64,000 nucleotides of DNA from assembly GCA_038861545.1 (NCBI GenBank), contig JAWCCZ010000006.1:1-64000 (forward strand), read 5' to 3'. This document shows positions 12,889-52,364 of the stretch, one piece after another. The translations under genes and the position numbers were made by a program. The notes beneath the pieces are model-generated. The model made no database searches, was not told the origin of the DNA, and was given only the letters and a program-made list of their open reading frames with translations. This DNA is from Thermofilaceae archaeon. GTDB taxonomy: Archaea; Thermoproteota; Thermoprotei; Thermofilales; Thermofilaceae. Position 1 is the first letter of the stretch; every line of letters starts with the position of its first letter.

Positions 12889-12952
12889 TTAAGATTTAAT
12901 GAAAGATAAACACTTATAACCTTATCTTGTAACAACTAAGTAGGAATAAGCT

Positions 12953-18217: not shown

Positions 18218-18235
18218 GGTAAAGGGATGATGTAA

Positions 18236-27208: not shown

Positions 27209-27260
27209 GGTCGTTCCACGGGCGCCCGGATCTAAGCTTTGCGCGTGTTCTAGTGTAAGC

Positions 27261-27974
27261 TCACTTATAGAGCTCCGGTGCCCTGTAAGCTTCAATAGCT
27301 TCAAGGAGAACCCAGGGCCCATCGTTCCAGTCGAGTGATCTAATGCCTCTTTTAGCTACCCAGTAAAGGCTTGTACCACCCCACTCCCAAAGCGGGTGGT
27401 CAATAACCCGCACTCCATTCTCCTCGAGTAGCCTGACCTGCTGGCGAAGGTTTGTATTCTCCCTAGGTTTAACGTTAAGTAGTTTTAACGAACGCCCAAC
27501 AAAGTTGTTGAAAGCGATTCGAGCCCGATACAATATGTATCGCTTGGCATCATCGATATCTATCAAGGGTACTACCCTAGCGTCGAAAAATAGGCGTCTT
27601 CCAATAACTTCGGAAGCGTTAACGGAAAGGATGGATGCTGAAATGCTCACGACTTTTTGCACCCGACCAGCGTAGGGTAGCGAGGGGCCTAAGAACAGGA
27701 TGTTAACTTCATCGCTAACGGTGTACGCACAGCTAGCGGAAAGCCTATTGACAACTTGAGAGGTCCCGGCTATAAGGGCTTCATGAACTCTTCTATCTCT
27801 CGGTTCCTGAAACCCTGACAACACTTTGCTAAACCCGACACCATCTAAACGGATAGCGAATGGCAGCCTAAGTCTGGCATCTAACTTCTGTTCACGTTCC
27901 CTGTAGTCACCCTCTAACTCATTTACCTGTAGCTGCAGAAGTTGTTCTAAAGCTTCTTCCAATTGGAATGCCAT
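27261..27974 (-). CDS. Thg1-like (tRNA-His guanylyltransferase family) protein
   Basis: RLDGVGF, SDEVNILF, GRVQK..S, FDARV. Confidence 0.9.
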   Translation of the reverse strand: MAFQLEEALEQLLQLQVNELEGDYREREQKLDARLRLPFAIRLDGVGFSKVLSGFQEPRDRRVHEALIAGTSQVVNRLSASCAYTVSDEVNILFLGPSLPYAGRVQKVVSISASILSVNASEVIGRRLFFDARVVPLIDIDDAKRYILYRARIAFNNFVGRSLKLLNVKPRENTNLRQQVRLLEENGVRVIDHPLWEWGGTSLYWVAKRGIRSLDWNDGPWVLLEAIEAYRAPELYK

Positions 27975-29030: not shown

Positions 29031-30043
29031 GGAAGCTGAAGTTCGCAATTCTCTCATTCGCACACGTTCACGCATGGAGCTACGCTAGAGTACTGAAAAG
29101 CCTGGAGGAAGCTGAACTCGTCGCAATCTATGATGACGATCCAGAAAGGCTAAAGAGAGCGGCGGAGACTTACAGGGTAAAGGATCTCTACAGCGACTAC
29201 CAACGGCTCCTGAAGCGGGAAGATATAGATGCAGTAATTATTGCTTCTGAGAATGCTAAGCATGCTGAGTTAGCGATAGCCGCAGCGGAGGCTGGGAAAC
29301 ATATGATTGTCGAGAAACCACTGGCCACGACGCTTAAGGATGCGGAAAGAATGATTAGAGCAGCTGAGAAAGCAGGGGTGAAGCTGCAGCAGGCCTTCGT
29401 GATGAGGTACCACGACGTCACGGTTATGGTGAAGAATATAATAGAACAGGGTGCAGTGGGTAGAATCTTAGCTATAACGACGACTAACCACGGCAAGTTC
29501 CCGGATCTCTGGTTCGATGACCCCAAGCTTGCTGGTGGAGGGGCGGTAATGGATCATGTAGTCCATACCGCTGATCTAATACGCTGGTACACAGGAAAGG
29601 AGGTTGATGAAGTGTACGCTGTCATCGGGAGGAATATCAGACCTCAGCTGAGGTCTGAAGATTGCGCGCTGATTTCACTGAAGTTCGAGAGCGGCGCGAT
29701 AGGGAGCATTGACTGCAGCTGGTCGCGGCCAGATACATTCTACACATGGGGTGACGTGTTTCTCGCTATCCATGGAACTGATGGTTTCATCTTTGTAGAC
29801 GCCTTCAGACCCTGCATTAATGTAGTAATCGAGGGTAAACCGCTTGCATGGCACTACTATGGTCCCGATGCCGACTACAACATGATTAGAGACTTCGTTT
29901 ATGCTGTTCAGGAAGATCGACCGCCGAGAGCAACAGGATACGACGGGTATAAAGCGCTCGAAGTTTCAATCGCAGCTTATGAATCAGCCCGCAAGGGTTT
30001 GCCGGTGAAACTACCTTTACAGAATAGCAAAGCGAGCGGCTAG
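29027..30043 (+). CDS. Gfo/Idh/MocA oxidoreductase
   Basis: LSFAHVHA variant N-terminus, VEKP, DHVVH; ATGA-coupled to the previous gene. Confidence 0.93.
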   Translation: MRKLKFAILSFAHVHAWSYARVLKSLEEAELVAIYDDDPERLKRAAETYRVKDLYSDYQRLLKREDIDAVIIASENAKHAELAIAAAEAGKHMIVEKPLATTLKDAERMIRAAEKAGVKLQQAFVMRYHDVTVMVKNIIEQGAVGRILAITTTNHGKFPDLWFDDPKLAGGGAVMDHVVHTADLIRWYTGKEVDEVYAVIGRNIRPQLRSEDCALISLKFESGAIGSIDCSWSRPDTFYTWGDVFLAIHGTDGFIFVDAFRPCINVVIEGKPLAWHYYGPDADYNMIRDFVYAVQEDRPPRATGYDGYKALEVSIAAYESARKGLPVKLPLQNSKASG

Positions 30044-32364: not shown

Positions 32365-33213
32365 TCAACTTGTCAAAATTCTTTTCAAAGCTTTTAGGTT
32401 GTCGCGAGCTGCTTTTATCCCGTCCTCAGGGTATGTGGGCTTATCGAGGTCTGGGTAAAACTCGGGCGGGCATTCAACGTTAAGGAAACTATCATACCCA
32501 GCTTCTTTCAACAGCTTGATAACATTCGGCCAGTCAATGCTACCTTTACCAACGTGGCGGAAGCCTCTGATGCCGCCAATATTTAAATCAAAATCCTTAA
32601 CGTGGACCATCGCGATCCGACCCTTAAGCAACCGGATCCAGTGTTCATGGTACCCTAAGGCTACCAGGTTTCCTACATCGAGGTAAGCTTGAACATAATC
32701 CGATTCTATTTCATCAATGAACCTTCGAAACTCGAAGGGGCTATACAAGAATTTATTCCAGACATTTTCAACCCCGATAATTACACCAAGGTCTTCAGCA
32801 ATTTCTGCGGCTTTTCTAAGAGAAATCTTCGCGTTATCGTACAGCGCCTCATAAGGTACGTCAGGTCTAGCTACACCTGGTACGACGAGGAGAACATCCG
32901 AGTCTAGATCCCTGGCTAACTCTAATCCCATTCTAACGTAATCCAGCCCGATCCCCCTTTCCCTTTCATCAAGAGAGCCCAAGTTGTACTTCCAGAACAC
33001 ACCGGTGGCAACACTCGGGATCTTAAGGCCTACCTCCTTAATCTTAAGGCGTTCCTCCCCAGCTATGGAACGGGGGTTTAGTAGACCATCATCAAATATC
33101 ACCTCTACACCTTCGTAGCCTAATTCTTTGGTCACGTTAACAGCCCAGACGAGATCAGGCCTAGCCTTATATCCGAACCCAAGCAAAGTCCACAAATTTA
33201 AGCCAGTTTTCAC
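32365..33213 (-). CDS. Sugar phosphate isomerase/epimerase (xylose-isomerase-like TIM barrel)
   Basis: GYEGVE, VENVWNKFL, DVGN, HVKDF, NVE metal-ligand set. Confidence 0.9.
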   Translation of the reverse strand: MKTGLNLWTLLGFGYKARPDLVWAVNVTKELGYEGVEVIFDDGLLNPRSIAGEERLKIKEVGLKIPSVATGVFWKYNLGSLDERERGIGLDYVRMGLELARDLDSDVLLVVPGVARPDVPYEALYDNAKISLRKAAEIAEDLGVIIGVENVWNKFLYSPFEFRRFIDEIESDYVQAYLDVGNLVALGYHEHWIRLLKGRIAMVHVKDFDLNIGGIRGFRHVGKGSIDWPNVIKLLKEAGYDSFLNVECPPEFYPDLDKPTYPEDGIKAARDNLKALKRILTS

Positions 33214-33355: not shown

Positions 33356-34846
33356 TTAACCCTCTTTTGCTTTACCTTTTTTTCTAAGTATTAAAATCGC
33401 CCCAGCCACTATCACTACGGCAGCCACTGCTATAGCTATCTGAGTAAAGGAAATTCCGCCTCCAGTTCCCGGTACCGTTATCTCGACTTGCGGTTTAAGA
33501 CCAGCTGTTTCTAATGGTGGGATTACTGCGCCGGTGAACCAAAGCCCTTGATATTCTGGGTACCTGGGCCAGGAATTCACCTGTATAAGTAGTTCTTTAT
33601 CACTTCTTAACTTATGTATTCCAGGTAATGTGAAGAGGTATGGAGCATCTGCTCTAACCTTTACTGTCATTGTATCATCAATTAAAACCGTAGCATCCTC
33701 TTTTGAGTAAAAGTATACTTCTAAACTTGCATTTGAAGGAAACTGTACAAGGATATCCTCGTTTGGTTTCAGTGTATAGAACATTGTTGATCGCGGGTAA
33801 CCGCAGTACCAGCCTCCACCCATTCCTGCATTCTCAATCTCTATGCTTCCGTTATGCATAAACCAGATTGAAACTGGCTTTTCGCTGACTAATGCTATAG
33901 CGTAGGCGTTTGGTCTAAGCATTATGCCTGAGCCGCCAGGAATGTTAAAGTCGTCAATCTTAGTACCGGTTTCTAGATCATAAAGCGTTACCTTTGTATT
34001 CTCTATAGACAGAACCTTAAACCCGTAATCTCTGACTTTATCCCATCCCCACTCTATTGCTTTGAAAGCCCTAGTAAGGTAGAATTTCCCTTGGAAGCCA
34101 CCTTCAACTGAGGGGATCACGAAGCTTGTCGTCTCATAGGTTCCTATTCCAGGTATAGCCCCGGACATGACCATTATATTCCCAGTAGACTTGATTCTAT
34201 AAGCTCTGAAAGGAGCAAGTGTAGTATATTTATATTCGTTAGCTTTAAGTTTTAAAGATGTTGTTTGTCCATCATCTCTTTCAATAGTTACCTCTGCAGG
34301 CTCGACGGCCAGTATTGTGTAGTCGGTGGCCGTCAGAGACCCCTGTAGAGCCACAAATACGAATTCCTTGCCCACATATATCCCCTCAACGCTGTAGTAA
34401 AAACTATGAACCGTTGGCGGTAAAATTGGAAGCGGGAACTTAGGGGTCTGGTTGTAGTTCACCAGCTGAACCGTAACAGGCTTACTTGCTACGACTTTGA
34501 AGATAGTGTTGTTTTTAAGCAGCAAATACAATGGTTCTAAGCTTTTCAACGTAGCTTTTGCGATTAATTGGTTATACGTTAGATTATAGACCTCAACTTG
34601 TACTCCATCTTCTCCGGATACAATCGTTAAAAGCGATAAAGTGACTGGGCTGTTATATACAACCCAATCGTAAGGGGTCTGGCATGCAGGTTGTGACTGC
34701 CAATCCGCTGGCCTGTATTGCCATATTTTAGCCGGCACTTTACCGTAATAGGTATATACCGGCTGTCCATGGGAAATATAAGCGTATACGAAGAATATAG
34801 TTAAAAAAACCAAATAATAAGATGCAAAGTATCTTCTTTTTATCAT
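33356..34846 (-). CDS. Secreted, C-terminally anchored beta-repeat surface protein (IgGFc-binding-domain-like)
   Basis: Signal peptide; four repeats of about 90-100 aa; G-rich linker, TM helix, RKKGKAKEG tail. Domain name is tentative. Confidence 0.75.
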   Translation of the reverse strand: MIKRRYFASYYLVFLTIFFVYAYISHGQPVYTYYGKVPAKIWQYRPADWQSQPACQTPYDWVVYNSPVTLSLLTIVSGEDGVQVEVYNLTYNQLIAKATLKSLEPLYLLLKNNTIFKVVASKPVTVQLVNYNQTPKFPLPILPPTVHSFYYSVEGIYVGKEFVFVALQGSLTATDYTILAVEPAEVTIERDDGQTTSLKLKANEYKYTTLAPFRAYRIKSTGNIMVMSGAIPGIGTYETTSFVIPSVEGGFQGKFYLTRAFKAIEWGWDKVRDYGFKVLSIENTKVTLYDLETGTKIDDFNIPGGSGIMLRPNAYAIALVSEKPVSIWFMHNGSIEIENAGMGGGWYCGYPRSTMFYTLKPNEDILVQFPSNASLEVYFYSKEDATVLIDDTMTVKVRADAPYLFTLPGIHKLRSDKELLIQVNSWPRYPEYQGLWFTGAVIPPLETAGLKPQVEITVPGTGGGISFTQIAIAVAAVVIVAGAILILRKKGKAKEG

Positions 34847-34931
34847 GGGAATTTTTACCCTAAGAGTTCTTTTTAAAGGTTATGGTTTTATTACAACAAA
34901 TCTTAAATACTTCGCTTTTTAATGAACCCTT

Positions 34932-36941
34932 ATGGGCACAGAAACGAAAAGTGAAGTAAAAACTGCATTAAAACCGTCTCTCTGGGCCGGTTTAGCAGTC
35001 TTTTCCCTGGTAATGAGCCTTATTGGAGTGCTTACTGCCCCCTTCGGTCCTAGCTGGATGTTCTCGATGGTTATCGGTACATTTACTGCACCTATCGTCG
35101 TTCTCTTCATATTCCTTTTGCTTTCAAGAGTTACCGGTATTTCAGCATCGCCGCAGACTTTAGCATTACTTTATGCCGCGGCTTCTATGTCCATAGCCTT
35201 CTGCTACAGTATGATACCGTACGGTATAATACACAATGCGGCCGCCCTCCGGATGAACCAGTATAATTGGCATCCGACGAATTGGGCTGTTCCAAATTAC
35301 TGGGTTTTCGGTCCAATAGTTTCTGATCCAGCGGAAATGACTCCAATTACTACGGGAGGCCCAGTCCCATTGGATAAATGGACACCATTCCTAACATGGT
35401 GGATCACATACACAATACTATGGCTACTATTCTTCACAGGCTGGATAGGGCTACTATATGATAGGTGGATAGAGGTAGAGAGGCTGCCTTACCCTGCCTC
35501 ATTAACTGGTACTATGCAGATCGAGCTAATATCCAGTAAAGGTAAAGACCCAAGAATCAAGTACTTTATGCTTGGTGTTTTACTCGGAGCGATAACAATA
35601 ATTCCAATCATAGCTACTTATCTAAACCCTGCGATCCCCGATATTTACGGCTGGACTAGAGAACCATTCTTACCATGGTTCTTAGGTACAATGGACTTCT
35701 CCAGATCACCGCTTGGTGCCGCTATACCTGTGATAGCATTCTTACCTGTTAACCCAATGATCTATTCGCTATTCTACCTAATGCCGACGAAAACCCTGTT
35801 TACGATCTGGGCATTCTCATTATTCGGCATAATGATACCGAGCCAAATTGCGTTTTACATGGGATACTACAGCGACTTACCAACAATGGCGAACAGATTC
35901 CACGCATTCATGAACGGAGCACCATTCCGATGGAACGGATGGTGGATAGGCGTCTACTTCGGCTTATTCCTGATATGGTTTGCGCTGAACATCAGGTACA
36001 TGAGAGATATCTTTATGAGAGATGCTCCGGAGCGAGCGCTCCCCGGCAAGCTCGGTACTGTAATGATTATAGGTTCAACAGCAGCGCTTATCGCAATGCT
36101 TATCGTAGCCGGAGCCAACCCAATAGGGGCTCCCTTGATAGTTTTGACAATGTGGTTGCTGTTTATGTCCTCTGCAAGAGTTCTAGGTAATGCTAGCCTA
36201 GTTGGAACAGCTTGGGGCTTCCCGATAGATTGGACTCACCTTCCTAGCTTAGTTAAGTACCTTTACATACCGGATCCCGGCTACATTACAGCACCAGATG
36301 GATCACAAGTTAGACCACCAGAAATGGTAGCAACTCTATGGCTAGCAAACAGATGGACCGGCGAACTAATGGCCGAGAATAATACTAACTTCGGTATGGC
36401 TTTTGCTATCCCGCTATGCTATAAGGTTGGCTTTGACACCAAAACTCACCCAAGAGATATTACGAAGGTAATTCTAACTTCAGGTATAATTTCGGCCGTG
36501 GTCGGTTACACGGTTGGTCTATGGTTCAGCTATGCCGCAGGTACAAATAACACTAGGATGGGGATGTTCGACGCTTGGTGGCACTGGGTATTTGGAGCTC
36601 CGTGGAGCAAAGTTGAAGAACAGTTTATAGCTGAGCCGTTATTACCTTACATAGCTGCTGGCTTCATACTGATACTTTTAATCAGCTTCCTCAACTTCCG
36701 CTTCGTCTGGTGGCCACTAGACCCCGTCGGCGTAGCGATGGCTTTCGGTGCTTCTGGAACTGGTTGGATAATACCGGCTTTCGTAGCATGGATAGTGAAA
36801 AGGCTCATATACCGTATTGGCGGTGCAAAGCTTGATGAGAGTACAGTTACGCCGATAGTGGTAGGATTCCTTGTCGGCTACTGGGTAATGGTTTTCATCG
36901 GCGGAATAGGTTCAATGATACAGTTCTTCTTACCGAAGTAA
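34932..36941 (+). CDS. OPT-superfamily-like (DUF6785/DUF6784-type) polytopic membrane protein
   Basis: 669 aa, many TM helices; RWIEVERLPYP, WWPLDPVG, AWIVKRLIYRIGG, PIVVGFLVG. Confidence 0.8.
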   Translation: MGTETKSEVKTALKPSLWAGLAVFSLVMSLIGVLTAPFGPSWMFSMVIGTFTAPIVVLFIFLLLSRVTGISASPQTLALLYAAASMSIAFCYSMIPYGIIHNAAALRMNQYNWHPTNWAVPNYWVFGPIVSDPAEMTPITTGGPVPLDKWTPFLTWWITYTILWLLFFTGWIGLLYDRWIEVERLPYPASLTGTMQIELISSKGKDPRIKYFMLGVLLGAITIIPIIATYLNPAIPDIYGWTREPFLPWFLGTMDFSRSPLGAAIPVIAFLPVNPMIYSLFYLMPTKTLFTIWAFSLFGIMIPSQIAFYMGYYSDLPTMANRFHAFMNGAPFRWNGWWIGVYFGLFLIWFALNIRYMRDIFMRDAPERALPGKLGTVMIIGSTAALIAMLIVAGANPIGAPLIVLTMWLLFMSSARVLGNASLVGTAWGFPIDWTHLPSLVKYLYIPDPGYITAPDGSQVRPPEMVATLWLANRWTGELMAENNTNFGMAFAIPLCYKVGFDTKTHPRDITKVILTSGIISAVVGYTVGLWFSYAAGTNNTRMGMFDAWWHWVFGAPWSKVEEQFIAEPLLPYIAAGFILILLISFLNFRFVWWPLDPVGVAMAFGASGTGWIIPAFVAWIVKRLIYRIGGAKLDESTVTPIVVGFLVGYWVMVFIGGIGSMIQFFLPK

Positions 36942-37166
36942 ACTAAAGTAAACTATCTATTTTTTATAAAGTTTCTAGTTCAGAAATAATTAAATTCTAA
37001 CAATTTTAGTTTTTCTAAGACAAAGTGAAGAAAAATAATAATAATTTATATTATTGCTGAATTTTATTAACTTTTGATAGTCTATGATGAAAAGAAGTTT
37101 CTCTTCTTTTAAACATTTTATGAAGCAAGCTATATAAGGAGGTAACCTACACCAAACCGATTAGAA

Positions 37167-40100
37167 ATGTCAATTCGAAAAGCTCCGAGTTTGCTGCTTA
37201 TTTTCCTGCTAGTAGTGTCTACGCTAACGTTGCCGGCTTATCTAGTAGGTGCTCAACCAAGTAGTATTCCAATTTCCGAACTCGTCGGGCTGGTTAAACT
37301 CGATGAAATACTTCAACATACTAAGTATTTTTCTAATTTAGATTCGAGAGTCACAGGCTACGATGGTTTTTATCAAGCGGCTGAATATATCAAGGAATAT
37401 TGGAGTGGTCTTGGGTTTACTGTCAGAGAAGAGCCTTTTGATGTTGCTATTCCTATAGTGAAGGATGCCAGTATATCCGTTGACGTACCTGGAGCGGGTT
37501 TGGTAAAATACTCTGCCTACCCTTTATGGCCAAATCACGTTAACCCTTGTCCATACGTTAGTCCGGTTTCGGGAGATAAACTGGTTTACGCTGGTAAAGG
37601 GGGGTTAGAAGACTTTGACGGAGTAGACGTAGAGGGGGCATTTGTTTTGGTCGAATTCAATAACAGATGGTACTGGAAGTACGCCGCTATGTTTAAGGCT
37701 AAAGGAGTAATTTTCATCGAGCCGGACGATACAAGCGTTACTGAAGCTCTGCAGAAGGTTCTTAGTGTACCTGTAAACTTCCCCAGACTTTTTGTAAGTA
37801 AAAATGTAGGCGCCGAGCTTAAAGAACTTTTAAAAAAGCATAGCGAGCTCAAAGTATGGGTCAACTCAGAGGTAGAATGGGAGAGAAGGAGAGTAGCCAA
37901 TATTATAGCTACTATTGAAGGTACTAACCCCGATTTAAAGGACGAAGTGGCTGTCGTAGGAGCTTACTACGATTCCTGGTCTATAACACCTCAACTCTCC
38001 CCTGGAGCTACAGATGCAATCGGAATAAGCTTCCTTCTCGAGCTATCCCGCCTCCTGAAAGAACGCCCTGCGCGAAGGACTGTTTGGTTAGTGGCATTTG
38101 CTGGCCACTACCAAGCGCTAGCTGGGGCTAGAGAGTTCGTTGATAGTCATTTTGGCGAATTAGGGAGTAAAGTAAAAATGATGATAACGTTAGATCTTGC
38201 TAGTGATAGCGACGTTGTTGCAGCTTACGCTGCTGGAGCAATGTATGGCTATAACCGGCCTAGAGACATCCTGCCACAATACGATAGCTGGATGAACAGC
38301 ATCGTAAGCTTGGCTAGAAATATCGAAAATATAACTGGGGAGCCGGCACGCCTTATAGATGGTGTCCGCTGGACCTGGCCTCCATGGGCTGTCAGCTCGC
38401 CGCCTTTCGAGCCTTTTCTAAGGTACTTTGAAGCTGAGGTATTCACTAAAGCCTGCTATGGAGGTGGGCTTGCTTTCGTAACTACCAACGCGCTCCGGAA
38501 ATACCAGTGGACATTCATGGATACCTTCGAGAAGTTACGCTTGGAAAATCTGCGTAGACAATTAATTGTTTTAGCTCCAGTGATTTATCATTCACTGGAC
38601 ATGGAAAGAATACCTTATTCGCTTTACCCAAGGAGAATAGGAGCCGTTGATCATGGACTGGTGTCGGTCACGCTGCAGCTCGGTAAGTATAATAAAACTA
38701 CTAACATGTTTGACGACTATGCTCACAAGGATGCTTTAATCTTTGTTTCAGTTAGCCCGATAATGAGTGGAGCAGCTGGAATTTTAGCAGTTGGTTTTCA
38801 GCCTGCCGCCGCCGTAGGTTCATCTCAGAGTATCACTGTCCAAGGTGCAACCGTAGGTTTATTTGCAGCTTCATCCCCCGTTAGTGGAACTACAGTCACA
38901 GCCGCATCAATAAATACACCGGTAGGGTTCACGTTAATCCTCAAACCGGATGAAACTGGCAGGGTTGAGCTGAAAAGTATAATGCCTTTAACCGCCGTTG
39001 ATGCTCAAGCCTACGTAGTTGACTCAAGGACAGGCGAGGTGCTGAGCGCGACCGACACGGGTCCTTTCGGCACCGGTGTGTTTAGGCTTGGCGGGCTCTT
39101 CGGTGCAGCTGGCGCAATCGCGGCACCGTTGCTTTCACCGATGATGGGCGGACTCGGCTACTTAGCGGAAGCAGGCGCCTATGCGAGAGCTTTCACAGTA
39201 CAGGTGCCCCGCGGCCACAGGTATATTCCACTGTTTAATTGCTCTTCAATCGTCTTCATAGGCTTTTATGATCCGCTTTTGTTGTACGGTCCCCAAGGTT
39301 TATCTTTTGAGCCACTCAGCTTTATCTCACACAGCTATCTTGTTTGGAGAGATGTTTTAACAACCTGGCCCGAGGCTATGGCTTTTGTAGAACCAGAAGT
39401 ACCTGTTGAAGTATTGATTAGAAGTCAAGGAAGAGTTATAGCAGTTCTCAATAATGCTAGCGAAGCGAATCCGAATGGCCAGGGATATACTCTGCCTTGG
39501 GGTAAGACACTGGTGCTCACAGCGGTTGATGCTGTATTGAACACGTACCGGTTAGCTGAATACAGAGGGGGTTTCCTAGAGAGTAGGATGACAAGCAGTC
39601 CAAGGATGCTTCTTTACTTGGATACTATGAGAAAATACTTAGTTGCAGCTAAAAGTGCTCTAGATAAAGGCAGTAAAAGTATTTTTGTGAAATATGTTTT
39701 AGCGGCTTGGCAATTTGTTATCGGGTCCTACGATTCCACGATTTCCCTGCTTTTTGATGTTTCTCAAACTGCGGTCTTTTTCTTCTTCCTCTCGATAGCC
39801 TTCGCGCTTTTAGCCAGCAGGTTCATGGGTAGAATGGTTTCCGGAAAGAAGCAGACCCTTTATACTTTAGTTGTGTTGATAACCGCTAACGCGGCAGTAG
39901 CTTTTGTACACCCCGGTTACACGATTTCAAATAATGTTTGGATGCTTGTAAGCGGTGTCTCTGTCATCCTCTTCTTGGCACTCGTCCTATACACGGTTAG
40001 CGACGAGTTCAACACAGCTATATCCGAACTGAGTACGTCCATACTTGGATTCCATAGAGCTGATGTGAGAAGGGGATCTATACTTCCCTCGGCAATCTCC

Positions 40101-41789
40101 ATGGGTATAGAGAATCTTAAGAAACGTCCACTGAGAACCGCATTAACGCTAACCACAATAACAATCACGGTTATGGCCCTCGTGCTCTTTACCACAGTTA
40201 ACGTGTCACTTTTCTTCTATAATAGGAATCTCGGCCCAGCTCCCTACACAGGAGTTTTGGTAAGGCGTCCATTCCAGCAGCTCTACATGCCTATGCATGA
40301 AATATATCTGAAAATATTACCAGGCATGCTAAGTAACAGTAACGCGTTATTTGAGGCACATCCTAGGGCATGGCTATACCCTGCTGGGCAGAGTTTATTC
40401 CTAACTTGGGGGCCCAACGGGTCGGGTATAAGGTGTATGTTGGCGTTAACGCCGGAAGAATCCAAGTCTCTTGAACGCGCTCTAGATGGTTATTACTTTA
40501 CTCCTGCTTCTACTTACTCGGTTATTATGACAAAATCGCTGGCCGAGAGGCTCAGCGCAATACTCGGCTATCCAGTCGGTCTAGGAAGTGAAATAAACAT
40601 TTACGGTATCAACATGACTGTAGTAGGGCTACTTGATAAACAGATAGCGTCTGCGGTTCTCGCCAGGGATTTAGATGGATCACCTATAACGCCGCCTGAT
40701 CCGATAGCCACTGGTTTAGCTGCTACTTACTCACCCTTGGATTTAGATACAGTGATTATTATCCCATATAGCTTCGCACTTCAGTACCTAAACGCTCAAC
40801 CGAACGTTATGAGAGTAAGTACAGAATCCCGAATCGACAAAGAATATATGCTGGCTAAAGCATACGAAATAGCCACGTTCCTACCCTTTGATATCTCGTA
40901 CGGCGTTAAGGATGATACAGCGCAACTTATAGCTAAAAGAGATATCTATGCTATGGGCGGCTTTGAGAACGTCGCAGTTCCCCTAGTTCTTTCGGCGTTA
41001 ACGATGCTTATAACGATGCTGGGCGCGGTATACGAAAGACGTAGGGAAATACACACACTTGCAACCGTTGGCGCAGCACCTGGGCACATAGATATCATAT
41101 TTGTTATGGAGGGAGCCACGCTAGCGTTCTTAGGTGCCTACCTCGGCTACATAGTGGGCGCTAGCGCATTATTCGCTGTGTGGAACCTGCGCGCTTTCCC
41201 ACCGGGCTTAGTGCCCAATGTCTCATCTGGAGTGGTAATTGTAGTTATAGGGGTTATAATGATTACCGTGATTCTCTCGACTCTCTATCCAGCATCTAGA
41301 GCTTCGAGGTTAGCTACTCCATCATTGTTAAGGTCTTGGGCTATTGAGACTAAGCCTAGAGCTGGTAGCTGGCAGGTGAGGATGCCGTTTATGGCTACAC
41401 GTGACGAAGCTATAGGGTTGCTCGTGTTTATCAGTGAGTACCTCGAAGCTTACAGCTCTGAACGGGAAAGGTCCAGGGTTTTCATGCTTTTATCTCCACC
41501 TCAGCTAGGGAAAGATGATAAAGGTTACACGTTGAGTGCAAGGCTTCACATGGCGCCTTTCGACGCAGGAATAATACAGGATATGAATATATTCGCTAGA
41601 ATCACCCAAGCGGATAGGTACCTGTTTGATGTCGTGCTAAGGAGGCAGCAGGGTCCTGAATCCTTATGGGTAACTACAAGTAGAGCTCTCATAGGCGAGC
41701 TTCGTAAGCAGTTCCTTGCTTGGAGGGCGTTGCCTCCAGCCGAAAAGGAAAAGTATGTCAAGAAGGGAGCGACCGCGGGACTGAGGTGA
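37167..41789 (+). CDS. Fusion of M28-peptidase-like/PA ectodomain and MacB/FtsX-like permease
   Basis: Signal peptide; SRVTGYDG, PA insert, ANIIATIEG, GAYYDS; later MGIENLKKRPLRTALT, extracellular core, YERRREI..VGA..FVMEG, YPASRAS FtsX motifs. Confidence 0.88.
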   Translation: MSIRKAPSLLLIFLLVVSTLTLPAYLVGAQPSSIPISELVGLVKLDEILQHTKYFSNLDSRVTGYDGFYQAAEYIKEYWSGLGFTVREEPFDVAIPIVKDASISVDVPGAGLVKYSAYPLWPNHVNPCPYVSPVSGDKLVYAGKGGLEDFDGVDVEGAFVLVEFNNRWYWKYAAMFKAKGVIFIEPDDTSVTEALQKVLSVPVNFPRLFVSKNVGAELKELLKKHSELKVWVNSEVEWERRRVANIIATIEGTNPDLKDEVAVVGAYYDSWSITPQLSPGATDAIGISFLLELSRLLKERPARRTVWLVAFAGHYQALAGAREFVDSHFGELGSKVKMMITLDLASDSDVVAAYAAGAMYGYNRPRDILPQYDSWMNSIVSLARNIENITGEPARLIDGVRWTWPPWAVSSPPFEPFLRYFEAEVFTKACYGGGLAFVTTNALRKYQWTFMDTFEKLRLENLRRQLIVLAPVIYHSLDMERIPYSLYPRRIGAVDHGLVSVTLQLGKYNKTTNMFDDYAHKDALIFVSVSPIMSGAAGILAVGFQPAAAVGSSQSITVQGATVGLFAASSPVSGTTVTAASINTPVGFTLILKPDETGRVELKSIMPLTAVDAQAYVVDSRTGEVLSATDTGPFGTGVFRLGGLFGAAGAIAAPLLSPMMGGLGYLAEAGAYARAFTVQVPRGHRYIPLFNCSSIVFIGFYDPLLLYGPQGLSFEPLSFISHSYLVWRDVLTTWPEAMAFVEPEVPVEVLIRSQGRVIAVLNNASEANPNGQGYTLPWGKTLVLTAVDAVLNTYRLAEYRGGFLESRMTSSPRMLLYLDTMRKYLVAAKSALDKGSKSIFVKYVLAAWQFVIGSYDSTISLLFDVSQTAVFFFFLSIAFALLASRFMGRMVSGKKQTLYTLVVLITANAAVAFVHPGYTISNNVWMLVSGVSVILFLALVLYTVSDEFNTAISELSTSILGFHRADVRRGSILPSAISMGIENLKKRPLRTALTLTTITITVMALVLFTTVNVSLFFYNRNLGPAPYTGVLVRRPFQQLYMPMHEIYLKILPGMLSNSNALFEAHPRAWLYPAGQSLFLTWGPNGSGIRCMLALTPEESKSLERALDGYYFTPASTYSVIMTKSLAERLSAILGYPVGLGSEINIYGINMTVVGLLDKQIASAVLARDLDGSPITPPDPIATGLAATYSPLDLDTVIIIPYSFALQYLNAQPNVMRVSTESRIDKEYMLAKAYEIATFLPFDISYGVKDDTAQLIAKRDIYAMGGFENVAVPLVLSALTMLITMLGAVYERRREIHTLATVGAAPGHIDIIFVMEGATLAFLGAYLGYIVGASALFAVWNLRAFPPGLVPNVSSGVVIVVIGVIMITVILSTLYPASRASRLATPSLLRSWAIETKPRAGSWQVRMPFMATRDEAIGLLVFISEYLEAYSSERERSRVFMLLSPPQLGKDDKGYTLSARLHMAPFDAGIIQDMNIFARITQADRYLFDVVLRRQQGPESLWVTTSRALIGELRKQFLAWRALPPAEKEKYVKKGATAGLR

Positions 41790-41795
41790 AATGGA

Positions 41796-43685
41796 ATGTC
41801 TTTAAGTATTAAGGAAGGCGGAAAGATGCTCTCCTGGCGTGTTATCCTAATATACTTGTTTATAGTAGTTGTTTTACACCCCGTTTTGATTTACAATTGG
41901 CTTACAAGCGGTCTCTGGGGCGTAGCAGGATTAAACGCTTGGGCAATTATACTGATCTTAGTCTGGTTAACAGCGAGAACTGGTTCGCCGTTAACGAAGG
42001 GCGAGATCTTTGCATTAAGGATGATAGACTCAGCAGGCTTGATGTACACTGGCTACTATTTCGCTTACATGCTTCGAAACATGTACTTCGCTAACTCCGA
42101 GATAGCTAAATTGTTTGGCCTCCAAGAGGAGGTTCCACCGTTCTTCGCACCTATCAAAGAGGACTTCATTCGAGTATCTATATTTAGAACGTTTTTCGAT
42201 AAAGCATGGCTTCAGCCGATATTCTCTACCATCATAATACCTTTTGCTCTAGTCGTAACTGCGAACTACATACTCGGGCTAATATCCTATAGCATCTACG
42301 TCAGGGAGGAGCGGCTAGCGTTTCCATGGGCATCGTGGGACGCTAGAATGATGATCGCGTTCGGAGAGCGAGAGCCGACTAGGATTCGAACAATCTCCTT
42401 GGCAATAATCGTCGGCGCGCTGTACGGTTTCATGACCAGCGGTTTATCGACTATCTTCAGATATCCGCTCGTCCCCCGTATGATGGTTGACTTCACGAGC
42501 TTGGTGGAAAATGTGATGCCTGGAGCAGCTTTCGCTTTCACAACGGACTTCATGAGCTACGTAGTCGGTTTTATTCTTCCGGTCAGGTATACTGTTCTTC
42601 AACTCGCTGCCTCCGCAGCAATATCGGTGCTCGGTAACTACTATGTAACAATTAACGATTTATGGCCAGCTGAGGCTAAATGGCAACCGGGTAGAGGTAT
42701 ACTCTGGAACTTTAACATGTCAACCGTTTACTTCTGGAACAGCTTTACGCTGGGCTGGGGTCTCGCAGCAGCTCTGCTCCCATTAATAATCAGATATAAA
42801 GTAGTAGCCCGTGCATTCTCTGGTATCACTAAAGGACTTTCGGGTAGTACCGGTATCAAGTGGCTGGACTCTAAGTACCTTCTAGCCTCTTACTTGCTGA
42901 TAACATTGCTGTCAATAGCATTTGTGGAGTCGCTGGCACCAGGTTTTCCAATACATATACTCCTCCTATTCACTGTGGGAATTTCGCTACTTATCACTCT
43001 GCTACAGACACATGCAGCCGGTATTCTAACGACAGTGAATATTCCCTATCTTCGTGAAGCTTTAATATACTTCAGCGGTTATAGGGCATTAAGTATCTGG
43101 TTTGTCTCCTCCGATGCAATGCTATTCACAGGAGGCTCGGGAGTTGCGCAGCAACTATTACAAGCTACAATGGTTGGAGTAGATGTAAGAGAGTACACTA
43201 AGGCTTACTTCATGCTGTCGCTCTTGGGGCTGGTAGGTAGCTTCGCCTTCGTCTCGCTTTTCTGGTATCTCTTCCCCATACCCGGACATGCTTATCCGTA
43301 TACTCTATCAGGATGGCCAGTTGAATCGATGAACTTCTGGCGCTGGCAGTCCTGGCTTTGGACAGGTTACCTTTTCCGGAGAAACTGGATGATAATGGGC
43401 TTCGGGCTCTCAACGGCAATGTACTTTATCTCTGACTTCCTATTGCATGATTTCTCTCTGCCTGTAGCGTTCATGAGCGGCATGCTGCTACCAATACATA
43501 CGGCTTTAGCATACTTTGCTGGTTCACTAATCTCGAATTTCATAGCAAAGTATGCAGGGGAGCAATGGTGGAATGAGAATAGAGGGTACATAGCTATGGG
43601 TTTATGGCTCGGTGATAGTATAGTCTCGGCTTTCCTAATGTTAATGCAGCTGCTCAGTAGGTCCATCTGGTTACTGCCGTATTAA
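41796..43685 (+). CDS. OPT-superfamily-like polytopic membrane protein
   Basis: 629 aa, many TM helices; YVREERLAFP, FPIPGHAYP, IAMGLWLG; 6 bp after the fusion gene. Confidence 0.8.
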   Translation: MSLSIKEGGKMLSWRVILIYLFIVVVLHPVLIYNWLTSGLWGVAGLNAWAIILILVWLTARTGSPLTKGEIFALRMIDSAGLMYTGYYFAYMLRNMYFANSEIAKLFGLQEEVPPFFAPIKEDFIRVSIFRTFFDKAWLQPIFSTIIIPFALVVTANYILGLISYSIYVREERLAFPWASWDARMMIAFGEREPTRIRTISLAIIVGALYGFMTSGLSTIFRYPLVPRMMVDFTSLVENVMPGAAFAFTTDFMSYVVGFILPVRYTVLQLAASAAISVLGNYYVTINDLWPAEAKWQPGRGILWNFNMSTVYFWNSFTLGWGLAAALLPLIIRYKVVARAFSGITKGLSGSTGIKWLDSKYLLASYLLITLLSIAFVESLAPGFPIHILLLFTVGISLLITLLQTHAAGILTTVNIPYLREALIYFSGYRALSIWFVSSDAMLFTGGSGVAQQLLQATMVGVDVREYTKAYFMLSLLGLVGSFAFVSLFWYLFPIPGHAYPYTLSGWPVESMNFWRWQSWLWTGYLFRRNWMIMGFGLSTAMYFISDFLLHDFSLPVAFMSGMLLPIHTALAYFAGSLISNFIAKYAGEQWWNENRGYIAMGLWLGDSIVSAFLMLMQLLSRSIWLLPY

Positions 43686-43712: not shown

Positions 43713-44522
43713 TTATTCTGAAGAACGTTTAGCTACTGCTAACGTGGAACCAGTTACTAAAAGTGCTACTCCAGTAACTGAAAACATGGACACGATTAGC
43801 GATTTAACGATCTCCCTCCTATCGGGTCGCAGGGCTCCAACAAAGAACAAAGCTACTTCTTGTGAGAGAGTCGTTAATACTGCAACTCCTATAGTTACAC
43901 ATCCGACTAGTAGAAGAACAGCTACCAGTTCAGACTTAGGCGTAACTCCCTCAAGACATTCCTTGATTATATCCTGAGGTACAAGATTGGGAATAGACTT
44001 GGCTAAAGCCTTTAAAACTGGTGGAACAACAAGTAACTGGAAGGGTAGCATAGTCGAGAACCACCAGATGGTTAACCCAACGCTAAGCCCAGGTAAAAGC
44101 TCAATCGGCACGACACCTATAGTTGCTTGGTATAGAATGTAGAGAACCGCACATAAGGCGTTCCCGACACCTAGCGCTAACGTCGACGCTGCTATGAATC
44201 TCGGCCATCGAAACCTTCCCTGAAGCAATTTTCCGAATAGGTAAAAGGCTAAGAAGTTTGAAGGTACTGCAGCCACTAAGCTCGGAATGTATAATGTAGC
44301 ATGCTTTATTGAATCCGCGATCAACGTACCAATGGCTGCGCTCAACCCTCCGACAACCGGCCCTAAAAGCAATGCAAAAATGCTTGGAATAATTACCGCT
44401 GGCCTAAATTGACCCAAACCCCAAGGGCTCTGGATATAGGCTGTTGCGTATGAGCCCACGAAGTACAGAGCAGCTCCTAGGCTCGTAAACGCGACGAGTT
44501 TTGAAGGGGTTCGCGTTTTCAC
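43713..44522 (-). CDS. ECF S-component-like membrane protein
   Basis: QFRPAVIIP..LLGPVVGGLSAAIGTLIAD S-component pattern; extra C-terminal TMs. Confidence 0.65.
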   Translation of the reverse strand: MKTRTPSKLVAFTSLGAALYFVGSYATAYIQSPWGLGQFRPAVIIPSIFALLLGPVVGGLSAAIGTLIADSIKHATLYIPSLVAAVPSNFLAFYLFGKLLQGRFRWPRFIAASTLALGVGNALCAVLYILYQATIGVVPIELLPGLSVGLTIWWFSTMLPFQLLVVPPVLKALAKSIPNLVPQDIIKECLEGVTPKSELVAVLLLVGCVTIGVAVLTTLSQEVALFFVGALRPDRREIVKSLIVSMFSVTGVALLVTGSTLAVAKRSSE

Positions 44523-45432: not shown

Positions 45433-46275
45433 TTAGAGTTTTGCTAGAAGGTTTTCTAGAAACATATACGAGGTTGTTACTTCTCTATCCAGATCGCTGC
45501 ACTCAAGTTCTCTGCTGAATCCCTCTGTAACCAAGTAACCCTCGTAGTGTATACGTTTGAGTTTTCTAAGTATAGTGGAAATGTCAACCCCTATGCTCTT
45601 ATTCCAGTATTCGTTTGCAGGATCGACTAGATGCACAAGTTTAATCCAATCCCTACAAGCATCTATATGCTCTTCTAATGACTCGCGATTTGGTCTCGCA
45701 TGGACGTTACTGACTTCAAGGCATAAACCCACGCTATCAGATCCCACGGTCTCTAAAAAGTTCAAGATACTTTCCGAGGAAGTGAAGAAAATATTGACGA
45801 ACTCAATGGCTAATTGGACTCCGCTTTCTTCGGCTAAGCGAGCGCTTTTACTGACAAGTTCTAAGGTCCAGCGATAGGCTTTTTCGCTAGGGACGCCGAA
45901 CACGGGTAATGGGCTAATTCCATACATTACAGTGTCCCCCTCAAGGTAATGAGCTAGATGAATAGCATTTTTCAAGCGTTTAAACGCAAGCACCCTATCT
46001 GCTTCAGTGGGTAAAAGCTCTAAGCCGGGAGCGAACGTGGGGATCGTTATTCCTGAAGCTTTCAGGTTTAAGTGTTCTAAAAGCTCTTTAAGCTGTTTCT
46101 TTTCTCTCTCCGACATAGCTGAAGGCCAGAACTCTAACGGATACTCGCATAGGTCAACAGCTCTGTAATAGTTTTTCACTATCCTCTTCAGGATTTCGAC
46201 CAGCGTGAAGTTAAAGGTTCTTCCAGGCCATTCATAGCATTTCCAGAAAACCCTAGTCATTATGGAAATTTTCAT
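45433..46275 (-). CDS. Divergent sugar phosphate isomerase/epimerase (xylose-isomerase-like TIM barrel)
   Basis: LAIEFVN, LCLEVSN, VHLVD, YEGYLVTE; ATGA-coupled to the oxidoreductase. Confidence 0.8.
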   Translation of the reverse strand: MKISIMTRVFWKCYEWPGRTFNFTLVEILKRIVKNYYRAVDLCEYPLEFWPSAMSEREKKQLKELLEHLNLKASGITIPTFAPGLELLPTEADRVLAFKRLKNAIHLAHYLEGDTVMYGISPLPVFGVPSEKAYRWTLELVSKSARLAEESGVQLAIEFVNIFFTSSESILNFLETVGSDSVGLCLEVSNVHARPNRESLEEHIDACRDWIKLVHLVDPANEYWNKSIGVDISTILRKLKRIHYEGYLVTEGFSRELECSDLDREVTTSYMFLENLLAKL

Positions 46276-47360
46276 CCATCCACCTCAGTCAGCTTGAACA
46301 GTGGATTGTAATCAATCTTCAGCGGCAGGGTTACAGTTTCTCTTAAACGGGCTGATTCAAAGATAGCCATTAAAACTTCTAAAGTTTTACGAGCTTGAAA
46401 CCCGCTAGATAATGGCTGTCTGTCTTCTTCAACGCTTTTCACCAAATCTTTTATAATTTCAACGAAGGGGTCACTTTGAGGTATTAACGGAGTTTCCCAT
46501 TTATCCATGCCTTTCCCCCAGTACCTAAGCCTCGGTTCATTCCATTCTCCTACCTCCAGTGTTCCATTGCTACCAGCCACGTAAAAGGAGCAATATGGGA
46601 TTCCCCGGTTCCACCAGTTTATTCTCTTAGCTCTGCCAAGATTCTTGAACACACTTTCGCTACTAAAACCGAACTGGCCTAGGGGGACTTGAGTACCTGT
46701 TATTTGCGAAGTCTCGACGAATACTTTGACACCATTGCTAAGTTTAAGGTAGCCGATAGCGGCATCTTCAACTAGGTGCCCATACCTCCTACGTTTCTCA
46801 TAGAGGTCAACTTGTCCTATAACCCACTCGGCATTCGAGTCACCGGCCAGGAAAAACGCGAGGTCCACTAGATGCGTCCCGTCGCTCAACATGTCGCCCA
46901 CGGCTGCTCCATGAATAAAAGTCACTTCTCCGATGACGCCTGAAGCCAGCAATTTTCTAGCTAAAATATATTCACCTGAGTAACGTCTGATGTGAGCTAC
47001 GGCAAGCTTCGACCTAGCCCTTTCACAGGCACTAATCATAGTATCTGCATCTTTAAGTGTAAGGGCTATAGGCTTCTCGCATAAAATTCCATTTACTCCA
47101 GACTCGGCTGCTGCAACGGTTATTTCACAGTGCAAGGATGGCCATGTGCAGACGCTTACCAGATCGAGATCTTCTTTTTTAAGCATCTCCATGTAATCTG
47201 TATATGTTCGCTCAACACGATACGTTTCCTTAAATTTATAGAGCTTAGTTACATCAATATCGCATGAAGCTGTTATCTTCATACCTAACTCAAGGTAAGC
47301 TCTAGCGTGGGCTGCAGCAATGTTTCCCGTTCCGATGATCCCTACATGATACTCATACAT
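46272..47360 (-). CDS. Gfo/Idh/MocA oxidoreductase
   Basis: IIGTGNIA, CEKP, SDGTHLVD. Confidence 0.92.
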   Translation of the reverse strand: MYEYHVGIIGTGNIAAAHARAYLELGMKITASCDIDVTKLYKFKETYRVERTYTDYMEMLKKEDLDLVSVCTWPSLHCEITVAAAESGVNGILCEKPIALTLKDADTMISACERARSKLAVAHIRRYSGEYILARKLLASGVIGEVTFIHGAAVGDMLSDGTHLVDLAFFLAGDSNAEWVIGQVDLYEKRRRYGHLVEDAAIGYLKLSNGVKVFVETSQITGTQVPLGQFGFSSESVFKNLGRAKRINWWNRGIPYCSFYVAGSNGTLEVGEWNEPRLRYWGKGMDKWETPLIPQSDPFVEIIKDLVKSVEEDRQPLSSGFQARKTLEVLMAIFESARLRETVTLPLKIDYNPLFKLTEVDG

Positions 47361-52307: not shown

Positions 52308-52364
52308 AGCTTGCGGACTTAAAGCTGGAGAGGTAGATAATAGTAGCGCACGGCTAGGAGAGTA

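Follow-up and report, generated by a model that had tools for sequence, protein, structure and literature searches.

The locus described here represents one copy of an envelope module that is conserved in the Thermoproteota and self-contained, and in which the gene for a large fusion protein, joining a peptidase-like ectodomain to a MacB/FtsX-type permease, is followed directly by the gene for a membrane protein with a predicted OPT fold. It is suggested, with a probability of about one half, that the module acts as a nutrient capture-and-import device whose MacB unit would be powered in trans. No publication describing the module was found, and the full-text literature on DUF6785, DUF6784 and archaeal M28+FtsX proteins yielded nothing relevant.

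Organisation of the locus

The locus lies within a 64,000-nucleotide stretch of contig JAWCCZ010000006.1 (the window). The source organism is an uncultured, hot-spring-type archaeon of the Thermofilaceae. The four genes and the two larger intergenic regions are as follows.

33356..34846, minus strand: surface protein P0001, 496 aa
34847..34931: divergent AT-rich intergenic region of 85 bp with TATA-like boxes, from direct sequence reading
34932..36941, plus strand: OPT-like protein A, P0002, 669 aa
36942..37166: AT-rich spacer of 225 bp between A and the fusion gene, from direct sequence reading
37167..41789, plus strand: fusion protein P0003, 1540 aa
41796..43685, plus strand: OPT-fold protein B, P0004, 629 aa

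Translations and direct sequence reading bear out the four open reading frames of an earlier note on this DNA, together with the 85-bp spacer and the 6 bp between the fusion stop and the start of B. In the 225-bp spacer gene A is followed by a T-run, and a TATA-like box lies some 30 bp ahead of the fusion start; GGTGA precedes B. The fusion gene and B probably form their own transcription unit, with A as a separate unit in the window, and translation of the fusion and B may be coupled.

P0001 was described in the earlier note as a surface repeat protein. Its translation does have a signal peptide and is of surface type, and it can now be more exactly described as a protein with a beta-rich body, a C-terminal TM anchor and a basic tail. 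It has no Pfam match, and its family profile matches the designed beta-propeller blades Ika8/Tako8 (E 8e-12) and, weakly, WD40. Relatives of P0001 adjoin the DUF6785 gene, represented here by gene A, in 11 of 28 related loci (15 ORFs), and P0001 is regarded as a fourth, facultative component of the module.

Conservation and co-divergence

The fusion gene is directly upstream of B in all 25 related loci compared, which come from Thermofilaceae, Bathyarchaeia, Thermoprotei and Brockarchaeota, and across these classes the two genes overlap or are separated by gaps of at most 25 nt. Gene A is present in 20 of 28 related loci. Among the 301 Thermoproteota genomes sampled, all 55 that carry B also carry the fusion family, and this extends to genus g67, in which the two genes are about 700 kb apart and yet both present. 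That the genes co-occur elsewhere, as had been supposed, is thus evident from the synteny, from six loci within this genome and from complete phyletic co-occurrence. Of the 123 Thermoproteota genera sampled, 22 have the fusion family, Bathyarchaeia included, often in multiple copies per genome (counted up to four in the genus survey). The earlier note's mention of similar gene sets in "Thermofilum-type" genomes was right at the level of the family, Thermofilaceae, but six complete genomes of the sister genus within that family are without the module.

This genome holds six paralogous fusion-B pairs of 25-38% identity, which are ancient paralogues, and a single genome can hold between six and eight such modules, paralogous and highly divergent. 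Distance matrices of the fusion and of B are correlated across loci (r 0.97, 21 pairs; 0 of 2000 permutations reached this value) and also among the six in-genome paralogues (r 0.85; 18 of 2160 permutations). The fusion-B pair has duplicated and co-diverged as a unit.

The fusion protein

P0003 consists, in order, of a signal peptide, an ectodomain of about 830 aa, three extra TM helices, a MacB-type permease unit and a cytoplasmic tail. Its recognisable parts, all on the plus strand, are as follows.

37284..38606, plus strand: PA + M28-like ectodomain, about aa 40-480 (profile match to 2ek8_A, E 1.1e-20)
39723..40046, plus strand: three extra TM helices, aa 853-960, ahead of the MacB unit (AF2 model)
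40077..41336, plus strand: type VII ABC permease unit, MacB/YtrF/LolC-like (profile and structure matches)
41352..41786, plus strand: cytoplasmic C-terminal alpha/beta domain, aa 1396-1540 (model; family-specific)

In Pfam, P0003 matches Peptidase_M28 (PF04389) at 51.8 bits (cut-off 21.3) and FtsX (PF02687) at 45.2 bits (cut-off 25.5; aa 1273-1382), while the match to MacB_PCD (PF12704), at 22.3 bits, is weak and below the cut-off. The ectodomain family profile also matches TfR and nicalin weakly.

Alignment to 2ek8 and YwaD indicates that the M28-like site has been remodelled. Both Asp metal ligands are kept in P0003, but the sHhDS/aHyDS segment reads aYYDS (HxD to YYD) and gaEE reads aGHY (EE to HY). 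The last metal-binding His, which we take to belong at a YHTxxDT motif, is Gln in the family (Glu in 1 of 17), this position being placed by the motif and not by alignment to a solved structure. The His of HxD is retained in only five of 17 family members. An M28 two-zinc site (His, Asp, Glu, Asp, His) with its catalytic Glu is therefore not found in P0003, where the catalytic Glu and two of the five metal ligands appear to have been lost. An active M28 peptidase was rejected because the HxD/EE site is replaced, and the domain is probably inactive. At the EE position of the family alignment H314 is invariant and Y315 near-invariant; since the replacement His-Tyr pair is itself conserved, it may form a new site for binding or catalysis.

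The permease unit is complete, with an elbow helix, TM1, a periplasmic core domain and TM2-4. Its profile aligns with YtrF (9o9x_C) over the full length (residues 12-426, E 3e-14) and also matches MacB and LolC/E/F. VIA comparison of the model gave Z scores of 12-16, with 15.7, 15.5 and 15.3 to YtrF, MacB and 5xu1, respectively. After TM2 the coupling-helix motif is ERRREI in P0003 and ER.REI.....G in the family; in a 22-sequence alignment of the permease region, E440 and R441 (alignment numbering) are invariant and R443 and E444 at least 90% conserved. The three TM helices ahead of this unit (model residues 2-37, 44-70 and 74-110, pLDDT 55-80) are absent from MacB, LolC and FtsX.

The tail follows TM4 in every full-length member of the fusion family. 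It is modelled as a beta-alpha-beta4-alpha2 fold whose best structural matches, to TBP-like, SRPBCC, Aha1 and KA1 folds (Z 8-9), are of generic resemblance only, and its profile matched no PDB sequence. The fusion family is a large one, its tail domain delimiting more than 1300 clusters at 50% identity. The domain was counted in 1510 representative clusters, always at the extreme C-terminus and mostly in proteins of 1430-1550 aa. It was considered as a replacement NTPase and rejected, as it has no P-loop and instead has the TBP/SRPBCC/KA1-like alpha/beta fold.

The OPT-like proteins

The AF2 model of gene B (pLDDT 86.8, pTM 0.87) had only two significant PDB matches in Foldseek, the barley YS1 structures 7wsr and 7wst (E 4e-9; TM 0.66/0.68 across the whole chain). 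On the strength of this model gene B is an OPT-fold protein, the fold having about 16 TM helices in HvYS1. B itself has no Pfam OPT match, but four of 23 B-family members pass the threshold (best E 1.5e-8), as does the B paralogue at C1:473728-475716 of this genome, with 39.1 bits (cut-off 25.8). The B-family profile had no matches among PDB sequences. No fused (Rosetta-stone) form of B was found among proteins of 1163-3320 aa, a result of little weight as evidence. Latescibacterota and Planctomycetota have proteins structurally related to B.

Gene A encodes a polytopic membrane protein that matches both DUF6785 (PF20581, 33.6 bits, cut-off 25) and DUF6784 (PF20580, 44.3 bits, cut-off 26.4), as do all 23 of the gene A homologues, and it does not reach the Pfam OPT threshold (PF03169). 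The A-family profile likewise had no matches among PDB sequences. BLASTP of A against B found only the ERLxYP/ERLxFP loop (E 0.055), so a profile-profile comparison was needed to address their homology. By hhalign the two families align (90.8%, E 1.2e-6) over 420 columns, from the motif to the C-terminus, and atlas clusters mix DUF6785 and OPT annotations. Judged from these profiles, gene A is a distant homologue of gene B. The earlier note had proposed a shared ERLxY/FP motif and C-terminal region, which the profile alignment upholds, and an OPT-like fold for the membrane proteins, which holds for B by AF2/Foldseek and is suggested for A by its distant homology to B. Formally, however, A is a DUF6785+DUF6784 protein and not a Pfam OPT member.

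Two motifs, NPG and KIPPR, characterise the eukaryotic PT clade without being universal. Both are absent from the translations of A and B, in which the conserved loop is ERLxFP; they have been described from many OPT proteins (PMC3061005, citing Koh 2002).

The search for an ATPase

The ABC ATPases of the window comprise one of amino-acid type (18904-19659) and an ECF pair (61212-62851). The signature ADEPTGNLD of MacB/LolD is missing from all of them, which confirms that the window has no MacB/LolD-type ATPase. A cognate MacB-type ATPase is neither fused nor adjacent at the six loci of this genome, nor adjacent in 28 related loci, of which 27 have no ATPase within 10 kb; the sole match is an ABC_membrane-type exporter. 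Contig C6 (75.5 kb) has an ABC ATPase at its end, which is of ABC-2 and not of MacB type. Elsewhere the genome holds three ADEPTGNLD-type ATPases, one of them an orphan. The candidates for the module are the orphan and a paralogue of it.

C5:60848-61594: orphan MacB/LolD-type ATPase
C3:20764-21492: MacB/LolD-type ATPase paralogue, 71% identical to the C5 orphan, beside a mini-FtsX

The gene after the orphan ATPase encodes 179 aa and looks unrelated, being THUMP-like on reading.

A homologue of this ATPase clade with at least 62% identity (E <= 1e-103) is present in all 55 module-positive genomes, whereas in module-negative genera within four of the same families matches get no further than about 1e-55 to 1e-70. 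Three genera have the ATPase genes at a distance of 2-7 kb from the module, one of them (g45) together with a mini-FtsX. The earlier alternative of an ATPase "in trans or none" has thereby gained a concrete in-trans candidate, a clade with an orphan copy that tracks the module across genomes. The clade normally adjoins its own mini-FtsX and also occurs in genomes with only FtsX relatives of about 1000 aa, and therefore it may serve those proteins. The correlation between ATPase and module could also reflect shared lineage history.

Flanking genes and possible cargo

Flanking genes in different lineages include GH106 with GH10, GH130 with TrmB, GH4, galactokinase and a weak GH125, and in the window they encode sugar-isomerase-type TIM barrels and GFO/IDH/MocA oxidoreductases. 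Among 96 deduplicated flanking ORFs sugar families are recurrent but few (TrmB 3, TIM barrel 3, GH130 2, galactokinase 2), several of these counts coming from related genomes. The other five loci of this genome have unrelated housekeeping flanks, such as DNA ligase, P-type ATPase, IMPDH, RuBisCO-like protein, MttB and adenylate kinase, which give no clue to substrate. CarboxypepD_reg+FtsX proteins of about 1000 aa are often adjacent to the module. Genomic context points weakly to glycans as the cargo, and domain logic to peptides; there is published precedent for OPT-peptidase fusions and operons (PMC3061005).

Proposed function and alternatives

The core of the module is the MacB/FtsX-type permease and the OPT-fold protein B, usually with A, which often lies beside a beta-propeller-like anchored surface protein. 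It is proposed that the ectodomains would bind or position an extracellular oligomer, somewhat more likely an oligosaccharide or glycoside than a peptide or glycopeptide. The MacB-type unit would perform mechanical work outside the cell and not transport across the membrane, and the OPT-like proteins would import the cargo, driven by the proton gradient. Power for the MacB unit would probably come in trans from the dedicated MacB/LolD-type clade, its C5 orphan and C3 paralogue being shared among the six paralogous modules. A nutrient role is favoured because there are many divergent paralogues per genome, sugar-related flanks and the OPT-peptidase precedent; an ATPase in trans is favoured because the NBD-docking ER.REI motif is invariant, an orphan ATPase exists and its clade tracks the module. 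Against import, characterised MacB-type systems export or extract and do not assist uptake. The hybrid uptake machine of the earlier note thus finds support in the co-occurrence of its genes, the OPT fold of B and the candidate ATPase, although its central step, in which the FtsX unit might gate delivery to an OPT channel, is conjectural. A bolder reading, a new transport architecture in which a receptor-like dead-peptidase mechanotransducer is physically coupled to OPT carriers and an ATPase set is shared, is put forward only tentatively. In such an architecture many surface modules, each specific for its substrate, would draw their power from the mini-FtsX and two MacB-type ATPases and hand extracellular oligomers to proton-driven importers. 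This would be the archaeal equivalent of the PUL or Opp systems of bacteria, assembled from unrelated components.

The scarcity of nearby ATPases, with 27 of 28 loci lacking one within 10 kb and none near the six in-genome loci, could instead mean that no ATPase is involved. The FtsX unit might then serve the ectodomain as a passive membrane scaffold or anchor, perhaps under regulation by the tail, with all energy coming from the proton gradient via the OPT-like carriers. The family-specific, non-NTPase domain after TM4 in every full-length member would suit such a role, but the NBD-docking coupling-helix motif is invariant across the family and the MacB-type ATPase clade co-varies with it and is cis-linked in three genera, and we consider an ATPase-independent module unlikely. 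Unlikely, too, is a role in envelope export or maintenance resembling that of LolCDE or MacAB. There the MacB unit would extract or expel a surface component (a lipid-anchored or glycosylated protein, S-layer or matrix), and the OPT-like proteins would be exporters, flippases or recyclers of breakdown products. Such a role is consistent with the structural matches, with the outward or extracytoplasmic action of all characterised type VII ABC systems, with the anchored surface proteins that belong to the locus and with the frequent CarboxypepD_reg+FtsX neighbours. However, a set of six to eight highly divergent modules in one genome is better explained by substrate diversification than by a housekeeping role in the envelope, whole genera of the same family are without the module, the flanks repeatedly contain glycoside hydrolases, TrmB and sugar kinases, and the characterised OPT members are all importers (PMC3061005).

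It could finally be argued that the OPT-like importers and the FtsX fusion are functionally unrelated and merely adjacent, given their separation in g67 and the separate transcription unit of A in the window. This is very improbable in view of the synteny at 25 of 25 loci across classes with such short gaps or overlaps, the complete co-occurrence, which extends to genomes with the two genes unlinked, and the co-divergence of paralogous pairs.

If the module is indeed an uptake system, it would be a major means by which uncultured heterotrophic archaea acquire organic carbon, and one that has gone unannotated. Bathyarchaeia are among the most abundant sediment archaea. Uptake would also provide a functional context for prokaryotic OPT-fold proteins and two DUFs, and an example in which a MacB-type unit cooperates both with a secondary carrier and with a shared ATPase in trans. 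Prokaryotic OPTs were biochemically uncharacterised as of a 2011 review (PMC3061005).

Comparison with known systems

With the type VII ABC systems (MacB, LolCDE, FtsEX, YtrEF, HrtBA and BceAB) the module has in common the 4-TM unit, elbow helix, periplasmic core domain and ER.REI motif. It differs from them in having no fused or adjacent ATPase, in the PA/M28-like ectodomain of about 830 aa, three TM helices and C-terminal cytoplasmic domain added in P0003, in its obligatory OPT-fold partner, and in an archaeal host without peptidoglycan or outer membrane. FtsEX-EnvC/PcsB likewise has a hydrolase-like extracellular partner, which in P0003 is fused in cis. The whole-chain fold of B is shared with the OPT/Yellow-Stripe-like family (TC 2.A.67, PF03169; HvYS1 7wsr), to which A is related at the profile level, but A and B fall below the Pfam threshold, have no PDB sequence match and lack NPG/KIPPR. 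Known OPTs act alone, whereas in the module the OPT protein has an FtsX-type partner.

Inactive M28-fold receptors (nicastrin, nicalin and transferrin receptor) resemble P0003 in combining PA and M28 domains, and in P0003, as in non-catalytic M28 folds, Glu-Glu and one His ligand are replaced; unlike these receptors and the 2ek8/YwaD aminopeptidases, the P0003 domain is tethered to a MacB-type permease and has a conserved His-Tyr. A peptidase-family domain is also tied to an OPT carrier in the fusions Osa16 (pepsin-like) and Ncr4 (S41-like) (Gomolplitinant and Saier 2011, PMC3061005). In those proteins the peptidase domain is joined to the OPT itself and has a predicted cytoplasmic location, while that of P0003 is extracellular, probably inactive and carried on a separate MacB-type protein. 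With SusCD-type PULs and archaeal ABC importers that use anchored binding proteins, the module shares multiple divergent paralogous loci and surface-anchored accessory proteins, and glycoside hydrolases, TrmB or sugar kinases adjoin it in several lineages. It has, however, no homology to SusC/D, importer permeases or binding proteins, and its association with CAZymes is patchy, five of the six loci in this genome having unrelated flanks.

Results

The four open reading frames predicted by the earlier note are all present, exactly where it had placed them, and its two spacers of 85 bp and 6 bp are borne out by the sequence.

33356-34846, minus strand: surface protein (P0001)
34932-36941, plus strand: OPT-like gene A (P0002)
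37167-41789, plus strand: M28-MacB/FtsX fusion of 1540 aa (P0003)
41796-43685, plus strand: gene B, 629 aa (P0004)

The 85-bp spacer between P0001 and A is AT-rich with TATA-like boxes, the 225 AT-rich bases between A and the fusion gene contain a T-run and a TATA-like box, and the ATG of B lies 6 bp past the fusion TGA, with a GGTGA overlapping the fusion stop. The ABC ATPases of the window belong to one amino-acid system and one ECF system, and none of them carries the ADEPTGNLD signature of MacB, LolD and FtsE ATPases, in agreement with the earlier claim that the window has no MacB/LolD-type ATPase.

Several other features of the neighbourhood were recorded. The genes on both sides of the module include four GFO/IDH/MocA oxidoreductases and two TIM-barrel proteins resembling xylose isomerase (28020-30043, 32365-33213, 45433-47360 and 51300-52397), a mixture characteristic of the oxidative breakdown of glycosides or of inositol-type sugars. 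An ECF S-component-like gene (43713-44522, minus strand) is convergent with B and has a counterpart beside the module of the closest relative (L022); the ECF A/A'/T genes are 17 kb from it (61212-63612, minus strand). Assembly genes of type IV pilus/archaellum type (a T2SSE ATPase with PilB3_C and two T2SSF, at 9578-13945) adjoin a TackOD1 output-domain protein. Genes of the URO-D family (MtaA/CmuA-like) recur, and one adjoins the paralogous C1b module of the source genome; the flanking genes of the C1c module are a methyltransferase of the MttB family and one that is RuBisCO-like. This group of genes was noted at 26114-27322 and 54247-55344 of the window and at L017:3380-4471 and L020:4408-5835, all on the minus strand.

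P0004 itself gave no match in a Pfam search. OPT was matched by 4 of 23 B homologues, the best at 1.5e-8, and an in-genome paralogue of B passes the Pfam OPT cut-off (39.1 bits). The AF2 model of B, made from 23 sequences (pLDDT 86.8, pTM 0.87), had only two significant PDB matches, both to barley Yellow Stripe 1 over the whole chain (E 4e-9, TM 0.66/0.68). A is a DUF6785+DUF6784 protein by Pfam, as are 23/23 of its homologues. BLASTP aligned A with B at the ERLxYP/ERLxFP loop only (E 0.055), and hhalign of the two family alignments extended from this loop to the C-terminus over 420 columns (90.8%, E 1.2e-6); the loop is the common motif noticed earlier. A search with the family profile among proteins of 1163-3320 aa found no form of B fused to the fusion protein. 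Given the hhalign result and the mixed OPT and DUF6785 labels of atlas clusters, the description of A and B as two OPT-like paralogues is right at the superfamily level, the relationship being a distant one that rests, on the A side, on sequence profiles. One in-frame TGA splits the DUF6785 gene of the paralogous C1a module (source genome C1:247455-249563, L001) in two, leaving a 173-aa and a 490-aa ORF, which could reflect either a pseudogene or an error in the sequence.

The fusion protein begins with a signal peptide, followed by a PA+M28 region with a profile match to aminopeptidase 2ek8 (E 1.1e-20) and weak matches to nicalin and the transferrin receptor. The extracellular part continues for about 380 residues, with a variable stretch rich in Gly, Ala and Ser that is missing in some relatives. 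Three extra TM helices and a complete MacB-type unit follow; the profile of this unit aligns (E 3e-14) with residues 12-426 of YtrF, and also with MacB and LolC/E/F (structural Z 12-16). The NBD-docking motif ER.REI is invariant across the family. Compared with active M28 enzymes, HxD is replaced by YYD and Glu-Glu by a His-Tyr pair that is invariant or nearly so over 17 family members, both Asp ligands are retained, and the last His ligand, whose position we take to be that of the YHTxxDT motif, is Gln (Glu in 1/17). Judged from these residues, the ectodomain is not a canonical M28 peptidase, although the residues conserved in their stead could make up a new site. The protein ends in a 145-residue cytoplasmic tail of alpha/beta fold, the best matches of which are generic (TBP-like, SRPBCC, Aha1 and KA1, Z 8-9); it has no P-loop and a PDB sequence search found no relative. 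This tail domain is present in 1510 representative clusters; in every case it is the last domain of the chain, right at the C-terminus, and most of the proteins that carry it are 1430-1550 aa long. The surface protein P0001 starts with a signal peptide and is anchored by a TM segment at its C-terminus, and its family profile matches beta-propeller blades.

The source genome (1.63 Mb in 12 contigs, 92% complete) contains six fusion+B pairs, with a DUF6785 gene beside four and a P0001-like gene beside at least two. Retrieval via B gave 28 loci from other genomes of Thermofilaceae, Bathyarchaeia, Thermoprotei and Brockarchaeota. In all 25 loci having upstream sequence B comes directly after the fusion gene, the two genes overlapping or lying at most 25 nt apart; A is found in 20/28 and the surface-protein family in 11/28. 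Of 301 sampled Thermoproteota genomes, 55 have B (22 of 123 genera), and the fusion family is present in all 55, so that the lack of co-occurrence elsewhere by which the earlier note would be refuted is not seen; both are missing from six complete genomes of the sister genus in the same family. Fusion and B distances correlate at r 0.97 over 21 pairs (reached by 0 of 2000 permutations) and at r 0.85 among the six source-genome paralogues (18 of 2160), and since the latter correlation is within one genome, species phylogeny is not its cause. The pairs have therefore been duplicated as units and kept together at 25-38% identity. In genus g67 (L060, L062 and L063; G098 and G122) the fusion gene lies about 700 kb from B and is followed by genes of 339 aa (about 5 TM) and 296 aa, and A and B are divergent neighbours, with four uncharacterised co-directional genes and a MacB-type ATPase after them. 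Linkage of fusion and B is thus not obligatory, though their co-occurrence persists. At two loci of one Thermoproteota lineage (L040:12234-15357 and 17317-19236, likewise L057), the beta-propeller protein is replaced, ahead of DUF6785, by two proteins of about 510 aa whose C-terminal parts are coiled coils, and an unannotated protein of 630-640 aa stands between DUF6785 and TrmB.

An ABC ATPase was found in only 1 of the 28 loci, 8.6 kb away and of the ABC_membrane exporter type, and 11 of the 14 FtsX-domain genes of the source genome have no adjacent ATPase. Besides the six fusions, this genome has single-FtsX proteins of 714-1090 aa with large uncharacterised ectodomains (for example L017:23-3292, minus strand, and L053:2902-6153, L054:2563-5586 and L010:484-2625, plus strand), whose CarboxypepD_reg+FtsX relatives often adjoin the module in other genomes. 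Its MacB-type ATPases are three:

C2: beside a 390-aa FtsX
C3:20764-21492: beside a 238-aa mini-FtsX
C5:60848-61594: orphan with 71% identity to the C3 gene, beside unrelated neighbours

Matches to the orphan in the 301 genomes are bimodal, with 70 genomes at E <= 1e-95 (62-90% identity) and the other genomes that have a match at best 1e-84, mostly 1e-50 to 1e-80. The high group takes in 55/55 module-positive genomes and 64/66 with any fusion-family match, a correlation to be read with the caveat that this clade comes with a mini-FtsX partner of its own and co-occurs with FtsX relatives of about 1000 aa, and that genomes related to each other do not count as independent. Four families offer internal contrasts, in which one side has both the module and the ATPase clade and the other side neither (f1, g1/g3 versus g2; f10, g45 versus the remaining genera; f23, G045 versus relatives; f33, g67 versus g81). 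Two complete g45 genomes have a mini-FtsX and two ATPases of the orphan's clade 3 kb from B, g60 has one ATPase about 2 kb from the fusion gene and 7 kb from B, and g67 has one about 5 kb from B. This phyletic tracking, the cis-linkage in g45, g60 and g67 and the invariant ER.REI lend moderate support to the suggestion that an ATPase is shared in trans by the fusion modules.

Discussion

Two lines of evidence bear on the cargo. The domain logic points to peptides: an M28-like head is combined with OPT, and OPT-peptidase fusions and operons have been published (PMC3061005). The genomic context points weakly to glycans: the module is flanked by GH106 and GH10 in a Bathyarchaeia genome, by GH130 and a TrmB sugar regulator in one Thermoproteota lineage, and elsewhere by GH4 and a TIM barrel or by galactokinase and a mannosidase fragment, and a weak GH125 match lies beside a distant DUF6785. 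In the window, the TIM barrels and oxidoreductases around the module belong to the same weak pointer. However, counts of sugar-related families were small among 96 flanking ORFs left after deduplication, and the flanking genes of the other five source-genome loci are unrelated. We put the probability of an oligosaccharide or glycoside cargo at roughly 0.5; a peptide or glycopeptide is less likely, and some other cargo less likely still.

The earlier note had envisaged a hybrid uptake machine, an interpretation that is partly supported. The analysis establishes what the domains and folds are, that fusion and B are a conserved, co-diverging pair, that the module lacks an ATPase in cis, and that a candidate trans ATPase exists and tracks the module phyletically. 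Beyond this, we infer that the ectodomains would capture an extracellular oligomer, that the MacB unit would use ATP for mechanical work outside in the manner of FtsEX or LolCDE, and that A and B would import the cargo via the proton gradient.

A literature search found no publication on the module, and it is a real, conserved membrane module that is apparently undescribed so far. Each of its parts belongs to or resembles a known family, namely the type VII ABC permeases, the OPT/YSL carriers and the inactive M28 receptors, and the novelty appears to lie in their combination. To this combination belong the bundle of additional TM helices, the tail domain, an obligatory partner of OPT fold, and an arrangement in many copies without an ATPase.
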